Source: Candidatus Kapaibacterium sp. (lineage in GTDB: Bacteria > Bacteroidota > Ignavibacteria > Kapaibacteriales > UBA2268). Taken from it: a stretch of DNA of 64,000 bases. The stretch covers positions 5,280,001-5,344,000 of the forward strand of contig OY762428.1 in NCBI GenBank assembly GCA_963665665.1, read 5' to 3'. Both the position numbers and the translations under genes were made by a program. The notes below the pieces were generated by a model. It had not been told where the DNA came from. It did not search any database and was given only the letters and a program-made list of their open reading frames with translations. Below are positions 15,086-36,853 of this stretch, piece by piece (the stretch's first letter is position 1; the number at the start of each line of letters is the position of its first letter).

Positions 15086-15296
15086 AGGGAAATAACAACA
15101 TAATACCTCCTTCTCCGGCCATTATACCCCGTTCTTCCATCCCAATGAACAGGCCGCCGGCCTTAATTCCCCATCCTGTGGTTTCAATGAACCGGATAAT
15201 TTCCTTATTTCAATGCTGTTTCGAACCAGAATCCAAATGTTTGGGCTAATTGCTTTGTTGGCAGGGCTTTAAACTGCCTTGGCCGGAGGTATTGAA

Positions 15297-15593
15297 CTAC
15301 TGTTTGGCCTTAATGTAGTGAAATTTGGCCTCATTGAACACTTGGTTGACCTTATTGAACACTTGGTTGATCTTACTGAACACTTGGTTGGCTTTACTGA
15401 ACACTTGGTTGACCTTATTGAACACTTGGTTGGCTTTACTGAACACTTGGTTGACCTTACTGAACACTTGGTTGATCTTACTGAACACTTGGTTGATCTT
15501 ACTGAACACTTGGTTGGCTTTACTGAACACTTGGTTGACCTTACTGAACACTTGGTTGACCTTACTGAACACTTGGTTGACCTTACTGAACAT
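15297..15593 (-). CDS. Possible 98-aa heptad-repeat protein (FSKVNQV)n; coding status uncertain
   Basis: GGAGG 8 nt before ATG 15593; same length and same C-terminus (NEAKFHYIKAKQ) as 27179-27475; several other frames are also open because of the repeat. Confidence 0.25.
   Translation of the reverse strand: MFSKVNQVFSKVNQVFSKVNQVFSKANQVFSKINQVFSKINQVFSKVNQVFSKANQVFNKVNQVFSKANQVFSKINQVFNKVNQVFNEAKFHYIKAKQ
15327..15592 (+). repeat. 21-nt tandem array, arm 1 of fold-back element A (12 units, consensus GACCTTACTGAACACTTGGTT)
   Basis: Directly visible; 12 EHLV-containing heptads in the ORF track. Confidence 0.95.
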
Positions 15594-15972
15594 GTTCTTT
15601 GCCTCCGACCAAGAGTTCAATGCCTCCGACCAAGGCGTCAATGCCTTCAACCAAGGCGTCAATAACTCCGACCAAGGCATCATTATCTTCAACCAAGGCA
15701 TCATTATCTTCAACCAAGGCATCATTATCTTCAACCAAGGCATCATTATCTTCAACCAAGGCATCATTATCTTCAACCAAGGCATCATTATCTTCAACCA
15801 AGGCATCATTATCTTCAACCAAGGCATCATTATCTTCAACCAAGGCGTCAATATCATCAAACATCGGTGCAATAGCTTCAACCAAGAGTTCATTATCTTC
15901 AACCAAGGCGGCAATAAAGCAAAACATTGCTGCAATAGGTGCAAACAAGAGTTCATTATCTTCAAACATCGG
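15593..15972 (+). repeat. 21-nt tandem array, arm 2 of fold-back element A (8 near-identical CATTATCTTCAACCAAGGCAT units plus degenerate units)
   Basis: Units start at 15681, 15702 ... 15828; core TCAACCAAG is the reverse complement of the arm-1 core CTTGGTTGA. Confidence 0.95.
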
Positions 15973-16171
15973 GGCATTGCTTCTGACCCCTCCCAAACCC
16001 TCCCCGAAGGAGAGGGCTTTGAAGAAGAACAAGGCGGCAATGACTTAGAACATCGGTGCATTACCATAGACTCTTCCTACCTCCCCCCGGCCCCCTCCTT
16101 CGAAAGGAGGGGGAGTTAATTCTATGTTATTTAACTTCTTATCCCCTCCTAATGTAGGAGGGGAATACAGG

Positions 16172-25507: not shown

Positions 25508-25674
25508 TTTTGTTCCGAAAAGGTTATGAAATCACAATTATTTTAAGATAACACTTTTTTTAAATTAAAAAAACGAAATTGTTACAAAATTAACGTTATA
25601 TAATATTCACAATTACTGTTTGCCACATTTTCATTATATTCGGATTGATGTAAAATTACTTATAGGGAATAACC

Positions 25675-26379
25675 ATGAAAAGATTATTATTAGTGAGCAA
25701 TTCAACGCTACATGGCAGCGGATATCTTGACCATTGTGCAGAAGAAATCAAGTCATTTCTTGGCAATACAATAAAAAAAGTACTATTTGTTCCTTTTGCC
25801 AGGCCTGGTGGCATCAGCCATGACGTATACACATCCAAGGCCTCGGAAAGATATGCTGAATTGGGATATGAGCTTATAGGATTACATACCTTTGATGATC
25901 CGAAGAAAGCAGTAGAAGAAGCTGAAGCTATGTTTATTGGCGGAGGTAACACTTTTGTTTTGCTTGGAGGGCTTCAGGAAGCGGGAATTATTGAGCTTAT
26001 CAGGGAAAAAATCGAGAACGGAATGCCGTATATCGGAACAAGTGCAGGTTCTAACGTTGCCTGCCCGACTATAATGACTACTAACGATATGCCCGTTAAA
26101 CAATTGAATAATTTTAATGCAATTAATGTATTTCCCTATCAGATAAATGCACACTACCTGGATCCGGACCCGAACTCAACCCATAAAGGTGAAACAAGAG
26201 AAACAAGGCTTAAAGAATACATGGTATTCAACGAAACGCCAATAATAGGACTGCGCGAGGGATGTATGGTTCACGTGGAAGGAGAAAAAATGCTGTTGAA
26301 AGGCAGCACAGGTGCCAGGATATTCAAACGTGGGCATGACCCCATGGAAATCAGCCCGGTTTGCGAGATAAAGATCTAA
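25675..26379 (+). CDS. pepE: Dipeptidase E (peptidase S51)
   Basis: LLVSNST, IGGGNTF, GTSAGSNV, TTNDMP, QINAHY, GETRETR. Confidence 0.95.
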   Translation: MKRLLLVSNSTLHGSGYLDHCAEEIKSFLGNTIKKVLFVPFARPGGISHDVYTSKASERYAELGYELIGLHTFDDPKKAVEEAEAMFIGGGNTFVLLGGLQEAGIIELIREKIENGMPYIGTSAGSNVACPTIMTTNDMPVKQLNNFNAINVFPYQINAHYLDPDPNSTHKGETRETRLKEYMVFNETPIIGLREGCMVHVEGEKMLLKGSTGARIFKRGHDPMEISPVCEIKI

Positions 26380-26465
26380 TATTTATTAAAAAATAAAGAT
26401 TGAAATGGCGGAACAGGTTCGTGAGAAGCCGGACGAGTACTGTTAAATTCCATTCTGATTTCTCT

Positions 26466-26572
26466 CCTTCCCAGGTTGTACCTGGGAAGGATTATTCCCA
26501 CAAAGTTTTACTTTGAAATAGAGAAGCATAACTTCAAATGAAAATTGCATTACGAAGTACAAGTTCGTAATG
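26466..26572 (-). repeat. REP doublet (REPIN-like), copy 2 of 3, inverted
   Basis: CCTTCCCAGGT-TGT-ACCTGGGAAGG and CATTACGAAGT-ACA-AGTTCGTAATG. Confidence 0.85.
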
Positions 26573-26582
26573 AGGGGGCATC

Positions 26583-26607
26583 GTAGGGGCAACCCTTGTG
26601 GTTGCCC
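26583..26607 (+). repeat. GTAG-type REP hairpin
   Basis: GTAG followed by the GGGCAACC-CTTGT-GGTTGCCC hairpin. Confidence 0.75.
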
Positions 26608-26611
26608 GAAA

Positions 26612-26870
26612 AAGAATCCATCTTTGTTCGCCAGATAATGTGTGAAGAATGGATTCTTCGCTGGCGCTCAGAATGACCTTCCAGCCTTATAATCGTCAAA
26701 TTCAATAGCCACGTGCTTTAGCGCGTGGATAATGACGCCCTGGTCGGAAGCAAAGAAAGAAAACCTCCCCTGTATTCCCCTCCTCCCCGAGGAGGGGATA
26801 AGAAATTAAATATCATAGAATTAACTCCCCCTTCTTCCGAAGGATGTGGCCGGGGGGAGGTAGGAAGGGT
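26612..26870 (-). repeat. Composite REP-like block, inverted homolog of about 16075-16384
   Basis: GGATTCTTCGCTGGCGCTCAGAATGAC, CGTCAAATTCAATAGCCACGTG, TTCCCCTCCT..AGGAGGGGATAAGAA. Confidence 0.85.
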
Positions 26871-26879
26871 CGAAAGCAA

Positions 26880-27179
26880 AGCACCGATGTTTGATTCTAT
26901 TGTTTCCTTGTTCGGAGTTATTGATGCCTTGTTCGGAGTCATTGCCGCCTTGTTTGAAGATAATGAACTCTTGTTTGAAGCTATTGCAGCAATGTTTGGC
27001 TTCATTGCTGCCTTGTTCCAAATCGATGCACCGATGTTTGATGATAATGAACTCTTGTTTGAAGCTATTGCAGCGATGTTTGATGATAATGAACTCTTGG
27101 TCGACACTATTGCAGCGATGTTTGATGATATTGCTGCCTTGTTTGAAGGCATTGAACTCTTGTTCGGAGGCAAAGAACA
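26880..27179 (-). repeat. Degenerate 21-nt array, arm 2 of fold-back element B
   Basis: 21-nt phased CTTGTT/GATGTTTG cores; homologous to 15593-15972. Confidence 0.9.
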
Positions 27180-27475
27180 TGTTCAATAATGTCAAACAAG
27201 CGTGGGATGAAGTCAAACAAGCGTGGGATGAAGTCAAACAAGCGTGGGATAAAGTCAAACAAGCGTGGGATGAGGCCAAACAAGCGTGGAATAAAGTCAA
27301 ACAAGCGTGGGATAAAGTCAAACAAGCGTGGGATAAAGTCAAACAAGCGTGGGATAAAGTCAAACAAGCGTGGAATAAAGTCAAACAAGCGTGGGATAAA
27401 GTCAAACAAGCGTGGGATAAAGTCAAACAAGCGTGGAATGAGGCCAAATTTCACTACATTAAGGCCAAACAGTAG
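27179..27475 (+). CDS. Possible 98-aa heptad-repeat protein (WDKVKQA)n; coding status uncertain
   Basis: GGAGG 8 nt before ATG 27179; amphipathic heptad; same length and C-terminus as 15297-15593. Confidence 0.25.
   Translation: MFNNVKQAWDEVKQAWDEVKQAWDKVKQAWDEAKQAWNKVKQAWDKVKQAWDKVKQAWDKVKQAWNKVKQAWDKVKQAWDKVKQAWNEAKFHYIKAKQ
27180..27445 (-). repeat. 21-nt tandem array, arm 1 of fold-back element B (12 units, + strand TAAAGTCAAACAAGCGTGGGA)
   Basis: Directly visible; 12 PRLF-containing heptads in the ORF track. Confidence 0.95.
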
Positions 27476-27676
27476 TTCAATACCACCGGCCAAGGCAGTT
27501 TAAAGCTCTGCCAACAAAGCATTTAGCCCAAACATCAGGATTCTGGTTCAAAACAGCATTGAAGTTAGGAAATTATCCGATTCATTGAAACCACAGGATA
27601 GGGAATTAAGGCCGACGTCCTGTTCATTGGGGTGGAAGAACGGGTAAACAGAGCAAAAGCATGAGGCGATTATGTT

Positions 27677-28150
27677 GTCATTCTGACGGAGCGAAGCGAC
27701 AGAAGAATCCATCTTCTTTAGTAGCTGATGCATAAAGAATGGATCCTTCGCTTCGCTCAGGATGACACCCGCCAACTATAATAACTTCAATCGGAAAAAG
27801 AATCCACCCCGTCTCGCTGTGCTCGCCACCCCTCAACGAGGGGAATTTTCCGGAAATCCACCCCCGGCCTTTCCCGACACGTCGGCGCCAGCGGTGGACA
27901 TTCCCATCCGTCATTCTGACGGAGCGAAGCGACGGAAGAATCCATCTTCGTTTGCAGATAGTGTGTGAAGAATCCACCCCGTCTCGCTGCGCTCGCCACC
28001 CCTCAACGAGGGGAATTTTTCAGGAAGTCCCCCCCTGTATTCCCCTCCTCCCCGAGGAGGGGATAAGAAATTAAATATCATAAGATTAACTCCCCCTCCT
28101 TCCGAAGGCGGGGGCTCACTTCAAAGGCTTCCCCTTTGGGAGGGGTCGGA
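27677..28150. repeat. Mosaic of REP-like modules
   Basis: GTCATTCTGAC..CTCAGGATGAC pair (27677-27766); two CCACCCCGTCTCGCTG..CCCCTCAACGAGGGGAATTTT copies (about 27804 and 27973); about 28030-28110 repeats about 26765-26845. Confidence 0.85.
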
Positions 28151-28613
28151 AACAGAATTAGAATAATCAATATCTGTGACTTCAAAAATTACGTAGGTTC
28201 CAGATGTCTGAATTTATTCCTATGAAAAAAATATGATAACTATTCTGGCTGTAATGAATCTGAAAAAAAGAACCGAAATATTGGATGACAAGGGATTAGT
28301 TAGTAATATTAAAATATTTACGAACCAATATTAATACAAGTACCATTATTTAAAAGCCACACACATCATTCCGGGTGGTATATGTTTCCAATTACAATTT
28401 AAAAAATTAACAAACAATTGGGTCGGCTGTTCTTCTCCTCTTCATTATCAATTTTTTTATTGCGGCGAAACCGCCGACGGTTTTTATTCCTTTGGATTTA
28501 TGGAGGAATGTAGTTTATTATTCTTCCGAACAACTATTCAAATTTATTTGACAGCCCATCCATAATTACTAATGTCGTATTATAGCCCTTGCTTTGCAAT
28601 AAGTACAACCCAC

Positions 28614-28652
28614 AAAAAAACCTTCCTGAGGTTAATAAACCTGAGGAAGGTT
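28614..28652 (-). terminator. Rho-independent terminator of the M3 peptidase gene
   Basis: AACCTTCCTGAGGTT-AATA-AACCTGAGGAAGGTT stem with an adjoining A-run (U-tract on the minus strand). Confidence 0.65.
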
Positions 28653-28680
28653 GTGGAATATCAATTTATCATCAATATTA

Positions 28681-30804
28681 TTAATCAAGCCCTCTGCGGT
28701 GGAGAAGAGGTTTGATGTCAGGTTCTGATCCGCGGAACTGAACATATAGTTTCATCGGGTCGTCGGAACCGCCTTTTGCAAGAACGTTTTCCCTGTAAAG
28801 CTGAGCCGTCTTCTGGTCAAACAGATCAGTTTCCTTGAAGGCCTGGAATGCGTCGGCATCAAGTACTGCTGACCATATATAGCTATAATAGCCGGCTGAG
28901 TATCCGCCTGCAAAAATGTGACGGAAGTAGGGGCTGCGGTAACGAACGATAATTTCAGGAATAAGGCCCATTTTGTCGAGTGAAGCTTTTTCAAATTCCA
29001 TTGTTTTAACTTTTTCAGCTTTCGTCATAGTGTGCCAGTCCATATCAAGAAGAGCGGCAGACATATATTCTGTTGTTACAAATCCCTGGTTAAATTTTGA
29101 GGATTTGGAAATTTTTTCGATCAGTTCATCCGGGATAACTTCGCCTGTTTCGTAATGTTTGGCATAAAGTTTCAGCATTTCAGGCTCTCCAGCCCAGTTT
29201 TCCATTATCTGCGAAGGAAGTTCAACAAAGTCACGGGGAACATCTGTACCTGATATACCATAATAGTTGCATTCTGAAAGAAGGCCGTGCAGGGCATGTC
29301 CAAACTCATGGAAGAGTGTTGTTACTTCCTCAAAACTGAGAAGAGAAGGTTTGTCGCCTGTTGGCTTGGAGAAGTTACATACATTGCAGATAATAGGTGT
29401 TACTTCTTTTCCATCAAGAACCTGCTGTTTGCGGTATGCATTCATCCATGCTCCGCCGCGTTTGCTTGCTCTCGGAAAATAATCAGTATAAAGGATACCG
29501 ATATGAGAGCCGTCTTTGTCTTTCACTTCAAAAACAGTTACGTCTTCGTGATATTTGGCAATGTCATTTCTTTCTTCGAATGTAATGCCCCAAAGTTTAT
29601 TTGCAAGCATAAATGCACCGTCGCGAACGTTTTCAAGTTTGAAGTAAGGCCTGAGCTGTTCTTCATCAAGGTCGTATTTTGCTTTTCGAACTTTTTCAGT
29701 GTAATACCACCAGTCCCATGGCTGTAGTTTGAAATCGCCGCCTTCTTTGTCAATCATTGCCTGAAGGTCTTTTGCTTCTGTTTTTGCTCTTGCAACAGCA
29801 GGTGTCCATATCTGGCCAAGAAGCTCATAAACTTTATCGGGAGTTTTTGCCATATTGTCTTCCAGAATATATTCAGCCCAGTTATTATATCCAAGCAGAT
29901 TAGCTTTTTCAACTCTTAGTTGAGCAATTCTTGATGCATTATTTTTATTGTCAAGTTCGTCGTTGTTATTACCCATGTTGGCATAAGCCATAAGGATTTT
30001 TTCCCTTAGTTCACGTTTGTCCGAATACTGGATAAAAGGAATAAAGCTTGGTTTCTGGATTGTAAATACCCATTTGTGATCATAACCTTTGGCTTTGGCT
30101 TCTGCCGCAGCGGCGTCAATAACTGATTGGGGAAGTCCTGCCAGGTCTTCTTTATTGTCAAGAACCATTTCGAACTTGTTTGTTTCTTTCAGAACATTCT
30201 CGCCAAAGTTCAGAGTCAGCATGGCAAGTTCTTCGTTGATTTTTTTCATTTTCTCTTTGTCTTCGGCATTCAGGTTAGCGCCGCCCTTAACAAAGTTCTT
30301 ATAATATTTATCAAGAAGCCTGTCCTGTTCTGTTGTAAGGTTTAGTTCGGCTTTTTTATCATTTATCGCTTTAATTCTGCCGAAAAGTTTTTCATTCATG
30401 TAAATATCGTCATTCAGGCCTGAAATCAGCGGAGTAACTTCTTTTGAAATCTCCATAAGTTCGTCACTTGTTTTAGCTGATGTCATGTTGAAAAATACTC
30501 CGGATACTTTACGAAGAAGCGGACCTGAATTATCAAGGGCAACAACTGTGTTCTCGAATGTAGGTTCTTCGGTGTTTTCAGCAATTGCTTTTATTTCGGC
30601 TTTCTTCTCTTCGATTCCTTTTTTCAGTGCCGGAAGGTAGTGCTCGTTTTTAATTTTTTCGAAAGGAGCTGTTCCAAATGGTGTGTCCCACTCAACGAAG
30701 AAAGGATTTTCATCTGTTGTAACGGGTTCCTGAGTCTCATTTTTTGTGCAAGCGGACATGAATACCCCCACAAATGCCATAAGTAATAGTAATTTTTTCA
30801 TCAT
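28681..30804 (-). CDS. dcp: M3 family metallopeptidase, peptidyl-dipeptidase Dcp (lipoprotein)
   Basis: Lipobox MSAC; KRGGAWM, FHEFGHALH, DFVELPSQ, GGYSAGYYSYIWS. Confidence 0.92.
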   Translation of the reverse strand: MMKKLLLLMAFVGVFMSACTKNETQEPVTTDENPFFVEWDTPFGTAPFEKIKNEHYLPALKKGIEEKKAEIKAIAENTEEPTFENTVVALDNSGPLLRKVSGVFFNMTSAKTSDELMEISKEVTPLISGLNDDIYMNEKLFGRIKAINDKKAELNLTTEQDRLLDKYYKNFVKGGANLNAEDKEKMKKINEELAMLTLNFGENVLKETNKFEMVLDNKEDLAGLPQSVIDAAAAEAKAKGYDHKWVFTIQKPSFIPFIQYSDKRELREKILMAYANMGNNNDELDNKNNASRIAQLRVEKANLLGYNNWAEYILEDNMAKTPDKVYELLGQIWTPAVARAKTEAKDLQAMIDKEGGDFKLQPWDWWYYTEKVRKAKYDLDEEQLRPYFKLENVRDGAFMLANKLWGITFEERNDIAKYHEDVTVFEVKDKDGSHIGILYTDYFPRASKRGGAWMNAYRKQQVLDGKEVTPIICNVCNFSKPTGDKPSLLSFEEVTTLFHEFGHALHGLLSECNYYGISGTDVPRDFVELPSQIMENWAGEPEMLKLYAKHYETGEVIPDELIEKISKSSKFNQGFVTTEYMSAALLDMDWHTMTKAEKVKTMEFEKASLDKMGLIPEIIVRYRSPYFRHIFAGGYSAGYYSYIWSAVLDADAFQAFKETDLFDQKTAQLYRENVLAKGGSDDPMKLYVQFRGSEPDIKPLLHRRGLD

Positions 30805-36638: not shown

Positions 36639-36721
36639 AATTAAATCCATCAAAAAATTCATTTATCACTGCCCTTCAGATATTACTAAAAGGGAAAAAT
36701 GTCCAAAATCTTACTTATTTT

Positions 36722-36838
36722 ACCTTGGATTCTAACCATATTTTTGATCATTTTACCTTGGATTTTGACCATTTTTTTGATCATTTTACCTTGGATTTTG
36801 ACCATTTTTTATTTATATTAACCTTGGATTTTGACCAT
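36722..36838 (+). repeat. Four direct repeats of ACCTTGGATTTTGACCAT at an exact 33-bp period
   Basis: Starts at 36722, 36755, 36788 and 36821; the first copy has two mismatches. Confidence 0.9.
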
Positions 36839-36853
36839 ATAAGGATATATCAA

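Follow-up and report, generated by a model that had tools for sequence, protein, structure and literature searches.

Facing 21-nt tandem arrays in a dispersed composite repeat of a Candidatus Kapaibacterium genome

The window analysed in this work is a stretch of 64,000 nucleotides of the Candidatus Kapaibacterium sp. assembly GCA_963665665.1 (contig OY762428.1, positions 5,280,001 to 5,344,000); positions below are counted from its first letter unless genome positions are indicated. It contains two copies, A and B, of a composite repetitive element, which lie on opposite strands and both sit between convergent genes. The neighbours of the two copies are PepE, Dcp, an Ogt-like gene and an unnamed 995-aa ORF, and no Rep, Par or other candidate DNA-binding gene adjoins the element at these two loci. 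In order, the element consists of left modules with hairpins, two 21-nt arrays (first a heterogeneous one and then, beyond a centre, a homogeneous one) and a conserved flank of 250 nt. The heterogeneous array is called arm 1 here and the homogeneous array arm 2, which is the reverse of the naming used in a preliminary description of this DNA.

Copy B is located on the plus strand and starts with a left module of GC-rich hairpins (26690-26869). According to the copy-number profile this module is itself present in about 90-100 copies, and the region 26701-26880 has 158 blastn matches. Arm 1 of copy B (26870-27163) comprises 14 units of 21 nt with the core CTTG[T/G]T[T/C]GA on a grid anchored in the flank; the corresponding TRF rows cover 26898-27148. 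It is followed by the centre unit TCGGAGGCAAAGAACATGTTC (27164-27184), a type I centre containing the 10-nt palindrome GAACATGTTC at 27175-27184. Around this palindrome, CTTGTTTGA (27138-27146) is mirrored by TCAAACAAG (27213-27221). Arm 2 (27185-27436) is built of 12 units of GATAAAGTCAAACAAGCGTGG, found by TRF at 27186-27436 as 12.0 copies with 94% matches, and the conserved right flank, delimited by the conservation profile, extends over 27437-27670.

Copy A (15102-15986, minus strand) shares its centre with copy B. Its right flank (15102-15335) was located by a blastn match at genome positions 5295128-5295335 (93.8% identity) and borders on an arm 2 of 12 units (15336-15587; TRF 15335-15592, 12.3 copies, 91%). 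The centre unit occupies 15588-15608, with GAACATGTTC at 15588-15597, and arm 1, with 18 units on the 21-nt grid, spans 15609-15986 (TRF rows 15600-15965).

The first 57 nt of the flank differ between A and B at a single base, while the consensus units differ at 7 of 21 positions. In copy B the core base is A/T in all 12 units of arm 2 and in eight of the nine CTTG-type units of arm 1; in copy A it is C/G in 12 of 12 units of arm 2 and in 14 of 15 in arm 1. The preliminary description had reported the same centre, register, 12 units per copy and flank and unit differences, all of which were reproduced, and the core-base counts agreed exactly. It had gone on to propose that each locus carries a specificity word of its own, rewritten across both arms while the array length is held, possibly by an active templated process.

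No long gene-like ORF was found inside the element. The right flank has no Rfam match up to E = 1 (26000-28500 searched), its alifold energy is near zero and no conserved fold is seen, so a structured RNA family was rejected. A CRISPR array was rejected as well, since the units abut head to tail without spacers.

Between the flanking genes, the entire 1.8 kb consists of a patchwork of repeats, each with 30-290 copies. Short hairpin repeats (GAATCCATC...GATGGATTC and GTCATTC...GAATGAC, about 80-130 genome copies) flank the element at 26600-26690 and 27675-27770 and occur also at 27900-27975. In the opening part of the left module, at 26700-26736, lies a motif of about 35 nt (ATTCAATAGCCACGTGCTTTAGCGCGTGGATAA...) that recurs with 86-95% identity in several other genera of the family and is the sole part of the region common to other genera. 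A 33-nt tandem repeat (3.8 copies, 89% matches) is located elsewhere in the window, at 36717-36840. Because both ends of the element lie inside other repeat families (30-130 copies), which mask them in a search for terminal repeats or target duplications, its true termini are not definable.

Searching the element's own 5.46 Mb genome with the 224-nt right flank (27437-27660), much as the preliminary description had advised, gave 53 blastn matches at 84-100% identity, and two more long-form copies lack this flank. A and B thus belong to a dispersed composite repeat with no fewer than 53 copies, and to speak of B as the second copy is misleading. In all 53 copies a single unbroken 21-nt grid runs from the flank through both arrays. 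Their centres fall into four forms: type I (GAACATGTTC) in 26 copies, type II (..ATAATGAG[T/C]AACCTC) in nine, type III (..TTGATTATAATC) in four and, in the other 14, a long form with the arms separated by a very AT-rich core of about 500 nt. A 501-nt query taken from this AT-rich core matches at full length at 16 places in the genome. Many dispersed copies of a short element that has no transposase of its own constitute a MITE-like trait.

The stretch 26000-28500, which includes the 3' part of pepE and all of repeat island B, occurs twice in the genome. Its second copy lies near C1:5,034-5,037 kb, where the array has 16 units rather than 12. Contigs obtained from four sequencing runs over 25600-28800 break inside the repeats; in the unique flanks, about 12 of 712 bases differ in two runs of another sample.

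Outside this genome, the flank DNA has no match in 40 relatives, and comparison of the whole element with 253 other genomes of the order yields only matches of up to 55 nt, to other short repeats. Exact flank and centre patterns gave 0 matches in species-representative genomes and metagenomes, in a scan that possibly did not cover the records of the genome itself. Blastn searches against plasmids and phages, of the kind that the preliminary description had suggested for the units, gave no match to the element. Judging by these searches, the family appears to be restricted to this lineage or species.

The genomic setting of the copies was analysed on a crude gene map consisting of ORFs of at least 150 aa with a gene-like codon score, from which 63 ORFs inside elements were excluded. 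The 53 copies fill 52 gaps, 24 of them convergent, 23 tandem and 5 divergent, against 7.9, 36.1 and 7.9 expected from all gaps (P 4e-9), which amounts to a three-fold enrichment between convergent genes. Convergent gaps make up 86 of the 319 gaps of at least 800 nt. The orientation of the copies shows no preference in tandem gaps (12 vs 11) or relative to the replichore (31 of 53 co-oriented, P 0.27), and sigma-70-like promoters are about as frequent as expected (4 found vs 4.6). Such placement resembles that of REP-like or MITE-like repeats, which may survive where they are least harmful or act at gene 3' ends. The most likely host role would be that of a bidirectional hairpin at gene 3' ends, involved in termination or in RNA 3' protection, a role proposed for REP/BIME repeats.

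In the 39 compact copies the number of units in arm 2 ranges from 6 to 20 (mean 11.9, sd 3.07). Twelve units are present in eleven copies, 11 units in nine and 13 units in five, so the distribution peaks at 11-13. Arm 1 has 4-28 units in the same copies, and the unit numbers of the two arms are uncorrelated (r -0.01). The twin of copy B at genome position 5,035,944 has a 100% identical flank and 16 units vs 12, and another pair with identical flanks has 7 vs 8 units. Since copies with identical flanks differ in their units, unit number must change faster than the flanks mutate. Fast change combined with a narrow spread looks like a stationary distribution with no held value; what is left of the proposal that length is held is the peak itself.

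The idea of one word per locus did not survive the comparison of all copies either. About six array types (TGTTC-AGT, CGTGG-GAT, TCCTC, ACCTC, CTGTC and the long-form type) recur, each of them at many loci, and they are scattered over the flank tree. Well-supported sister flanks can carry different array types (e.g., 654052/4573707, at 100/99 support), and therefore arrays and flanks have different histories. This discordance points to recombination among the copies.

Active rewriting was one of the possibilities raised by the preliminary description. An enzymatic system of this sort would regenerate the arrays at each locus either by reverse transcriptase templating, as in diversity-generating retroelements, or by HUH hairpin processing. 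That arrays outpace their flanks, as seen between A and B (7 of 21 unit positions vs 1 of 57 flank bases), and that units are homogeneous within an array (94% matches) is in line with such a process. However, the genome, which is 99.48% complete, has no match to RVT_1 (PF00078), so a diversity-generating retroelement was rejected. The search for co-occurring enzymes found one clear Y1_Tnp gene (HUH, IS200/RAYT-like; 75.7 bits; C1:1,821,817-1,822,161), but it is flanked on both sides by its own, different hairpin repeats (8-27 copies), and the locus has no blastn match to island B. The array types, moreover, are discrete and common to many loci. Enzymatic rewriting is close to refuted by these findings, and we consider it highly improbable.

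Complementarity between the facing arms is far beyond chance. In register, 0.47-0.64 of the positions can form Watson-Crick pairs (mean 0.573), compared with 0.29-0.30 out of register, and complementarity is equal at any 21-nt shift. Both strands fold back better than their shuffles (z -4.5 and -4.6). A long perfect hairpin as the functional unit was rejected, the arms being only 47-64% complementary.

Covariation between the arms was assessed over all 441 pairs of unit positions. The symmetric pair formed by position 21 of arm 1 and position 12 of arm 2, the core base, ranks first by complementary covariance, and three further symmetric pairs are among the top ten. Summing complementary covariance gives 0.295 for the true register, whereas the 20 shifted registers range from -0.14 to 0.08 (permutation P 2.5e-4). 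The effect is small (58.5% complementarity within a copy vs 57.0% between copies) and local: counted from the centre, the first unit of arm 1 agrees with the other arm in 88% of copies and the second in 78%, and agreement beyond the second unit is 52-80%, i.e., at background. The centre-proximal core states in the 39 copies are G-C in 24, T-A in 13, G-A in two and T-C in none, so 37 of 39 are complementary, and the two covarying sites lie 33 nt apart. The Fisher values for this association (1.3e-8 overall, 1.2e-4 within type I) both overstate independence because the copies share ancestry and recombine with each other.

The G:C / T:A covariation is therefore real, specific to the palindromic register and confined to one or two units adjacent to the centre. 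In this respect the arm-to-arm covariation seen by the preliminary description in two copies holds for the family, and the claimed rewriting across both arms shrinks to the centre-proximal units. That description had named unit counts varying freely together with uncorrelated arm cores as the outcome speaking against it; across the family the counts do vary, and the cores are correlated, near the centre only.

Matched cores could also be expected if each array were a series of phased sites recognised by a factor that binds DNA or RNA sequence-specifically, with one core per 21 bp (two helical turns) and the same core in both orientations, a view which comes near to the specificity word proposed earlier. 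Within the otherwise variable units a 9-nt core is invariant or nearly so according to positional entropy, and related cores (TTTGAA / TTCAAA) are found in arrays of other genera whose units are otherwise different. The covariation of the core base between arms, the narrow distribution of array length and the position of long-form arrays around the very AT-rich core of about 500 nt are all in line with phased sites. On the other hand, arm 1 mixes G and T cores in most copies, whatever the other arm has. The genes next to A and B include no candidate for a binding protein, the element has no plasmid or phage match, and a chromosomal family of more than 50 members with a bias to gene 3' ends does not resemble origins or centromeres. 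Phased binding sites are, in our view, distinctly unlikely.

Since 21 nt equal seven codons and the conserved positions fit the a/d/e positions of a heptad, three coding layouts were tested: ORF1 and ORF2 both on the plus strand, convergent ORFs and one long ORF. In the plus strand cassette, an acidic hydrophobic ORF1 (ending with GGKEHVQ-stop) overlaps the 5' end of a basic ORF2 (MF(N/S)K...), whose start codon is an ATG inside the centre. In the convergent layout, two paralogous ORFs read arm 1 on the plus strand and arm 2 on the minus strand. The arrays would then encode small coiled-coil-like proteins, and the covarying core bases would correspond to residues (V/V or F/F) that match between partner helices.

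Some observations agree with such proteins. In the 26 copies with a type I centre, GGAGG precedes the ATG of the centre by 8 nt, and a minus-strand frame starting with MFGL...AGLY is intact in 14 copies. The lowest pN/pS values are those of ORF1 (arm 1 frame +2, 0.58) and ORF2 (arm 2 frame +0, 0.42), i.e., of the plus strand in both arms. Codon log-odds trained on 1,488 long ORFs give gene-like values for arm 1 frame +2 (0.21) and arm 2 frame -0 (0.28), compared with 0.30 for real genes. For arm 2, however, the two statistics disagree, as pN/pS selects frame +0 and codon use selects frame -0. Neither pN/pS value beats the null obtained by moving the variable positions around within the unit (P 0.12-0.13 for the named frames; 0.42 and 0.65 for the minimum over six frames).

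A frame kept open across copies, with its start and stop, is not found. Four of the six frames are about equally stop-free in each arm, and the ATG of ORF2 is absent from the long form and from type III centres. In most copies the minus-strand frame (-0) has an in-frame TGA or TAA in the flank part, and it places a proline in every heptad of B-type arm 2. The frame of ORF1 traverses GC-rich hairpin modules that also occur alone. Flank diversity by codon position is flat (0.145, 0.160, 0.151), so substitutions there have no codon periodicity.

Database searches gave a similar picture. No Pfam family reached the cut-off for the candidate ORFs 26887-27186 (+), 27179-27472 (+), 27110-27493 (-) and 26824-27447 (-), which returned only sub-threshold coiled-coil noise. 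The lone match above the cut-off was PF11727 (ISG65-75; 25.6 bits vs 25.1) on the plus strand read-through 26891-27472; it falls on the low-complexity heptad stretch and was read as spurious. In a set of 5.8 billion proteins, the plus frame of arm 1 has 7 matches, all to proteins that are unnamed (4 encoded by this genome, 3 by other contigs), and the other two candidate frames match nothing; these protein-set searches brought up no homologue outside the lineage and none with a name. An exact look-up of 10 candidate ORFs found none of them in the protein collection. Scanning for the period-21 pattern detected at least 88 loci across many phyla, mostly within longer open frames, and some of these are clearly coiled-coil proteins. 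Such a distribution lends the heptad proposal some plausibility, and since most of the loci are in longer open frames, it also indicates that 21-nt arrays as such are common in coiled-coil genes.

Overall, the coding signals of the arrays contradict each other, and the best reading of the arrays is a non-coding one. Small heptad-repeat proteins are a possible but rather unlikely alternative.

Arrays with this period are not limited to the palindromic family. Of the 272 non-overlapping TRF arrays in the genome, 196 have a period of 21 or a multiple of it, and 66 of these 196 are more than 2.5 kb away from any copy of the family. A second, unrelated family consists of paired 21-nt arrays in direct orientation at about 25 loci (e.g., C1:235709-236291), where units of CCAACGCTAAGACGGCACATC are followed by units of GAACGCTCGGAAAGCTTGGGG, about 10-15 of each, in a single register. 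TAACTGA heptamer arrays, known from marine Beggiatoaceae (PMC4679880), do not occur in this genome. The genome also lacks pmoA and has a DsrC/TusE-like gene.

Other genera of the same family also possess many 21-nt arrays located beside conserved 'leaders'. One unit from another genus is identical to that of copy A at 16 of 21 positions, although its array is a lone one bounded by stops. The complete genome of another genus contains many 21-nt array loci, and in 9 of the 15 loci examined there, two adjacent arrays with unrelated units lie beside conserved 'leaders' of about 100 nt. Four loci of genome G160 (L152, L153, L155 and L159) have in common a conserved upstream stretch and the opening ATGTC[T/C]TTCATTAAGGTTTTAAT..., after which the 21-nt arrays differ. 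A second leader, with alternation of ATG and TTG at one position, is common to three further loci.

A fixed period, equal to seven codons or two helical turns, together with a narrow range of lengths suggests a constraint beyond plain slippage. One may speculate that this bacterial family has a functional class of its own, made up of 21-nt arrays with about 12 units, which would be either hypervariable heptad micro-proteins or phased binding arrays, maintained at a length of about 250 bp and with cores matched between the arms. This would cover the palindromic pairs at more than 50 loci, the second family of direct pairs and the leader-side arrays of other genera; in the micro-protein variant, acidic and basic partners derived from sense and antisense strands would be included. 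We regard a common functional class as unlikely.

With moderate confidence, we favour the view that the element is a non-coding, species-restricted palindromic double minisatellite, and that slippage, ectopic recombination and template switching at the quasi-palindrome have shaped it. Its appearance is more that of rapidly changing repetitive DNA than of a programmed rewriting system. The element would be non-autonomous repeat DNA that gathers in the 3' intergenic 'repeat islands' of the genome, and its two opposed arrays would be old, diverged mirror images that have remained about 57% complementary. Unit numbers shift quickly through replication slippage or unequal exchange, as the copies with identical flanks document, and have what looks like a stationary distribution around 12. 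Ectopic recombination or gene conversion shuffles arrays and flanks, as shown by the conflict between the flank tree and the array types. Finally, a core change arising nearest to the palindrome centre may be copied to the facing arm by intramolecular template switching, and homogenisation of the array may then spread it through arm 2. For the template-switching step we rely on inference, and tight linkage of sites 33 nt apart, after a single fortuitous pair of changes, could produce this association as well.

What these processes leave unaccounted for is that 21-nt arrays with about 12 units dominate in this genome and are also present in related genera. As a whole, the earlier interpretation is partly supported. 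Its central idea of a word rewritten with length held is mostly not supported, and the explanation that it had kept as a fallback, slippage plus template switching, is the one favoured by the evidence.

A literature search found no paper describing such an element. If the double minisatellite view is true, the family provides a natural example of a minisatellite within a dispersed bacterial repeat and of concerted array evolution, and probably also of template switching at quasi-palindromes in a genome from nature. A caution is likewise in order, as 21-nt arrays that are open in several frames can mimic genes or 'systems'. If, instead, a functional class exists, a whole bacterial family would have undescribed length-controlled 21-nt arrays or heptad micro-proteins. 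The regularity of period 21 and about 12 units across array families and genera is the part most worth pursuing.

Several known systems share features with the element. In plasmid iterons and centromere-like arrays, direct repeats recur at intervals of about two helical turns, and AT-rich DNA lies next to some of them. The present arrays have the same spacing and, in the long form, AT-rich DNA nearby. Unlike iterons, they have no Rep or Par gene nearby (at A and B), are present in more than 50 chromosomal copies and show no similarity to plasmids or phages.

REPs are single palindromes of about 20-40 nt, whereas the element described here has 12-unit tandem arrays in place of such a palindrome. 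A RAYT gene sits among copies of the very repeat whose spread it promotes; the Y1_Tnp locus of this genome is surrounded by repeats other than those of island B, and membership in a REP/BIME-RAYT system (PMC2817692) was rejected on these grounds. The likeness to REPs and BIMEs consists in abundant hairpin-forming repeats, mosaic intergenic clusters and a preference for gene 3' ends, as well as in the presence of a single-copy Y1 transposase in the genome.

Another parallel is offered by BrickBuilt of Porphyromonas gingivalis, a minisatellite inside a MITE (PMC4596501). Both elements are intergenic and confined to one species, with 19 copies of BrickBuilt and at least 53 of the present element, and both have a spacerless tandem repeat of about 20 nt (23 there, 21 here) between a conserved 'leader' and 'tail'. 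The BrickBuilt MITE has small terminal inverted repeats, whereas here the termini lie hidden inside other repeats. Unlike that element, the present one has two arrays facing each other across a palindromic centre or an AT-rich core and comes in several array types, and its period is exactly 21 nt and common to other array families in the genome.

For the covariation, the relevant precedent is E. coli, where quasi-palindromes are hotspots of template-switch mutation (PMC7202029). The present element is likewise an inverted repeat whose arms match imperfectly, and a change in either arm may be copied to the other; template switching of the E. coli kind would yield complementary G:C / T:A states beside the centre. 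The E. coli case is known from short laboratory reporters, unlike the natural arrays considered here, for which template switching is deduced from covariation and the change must then spread along a tandem array.
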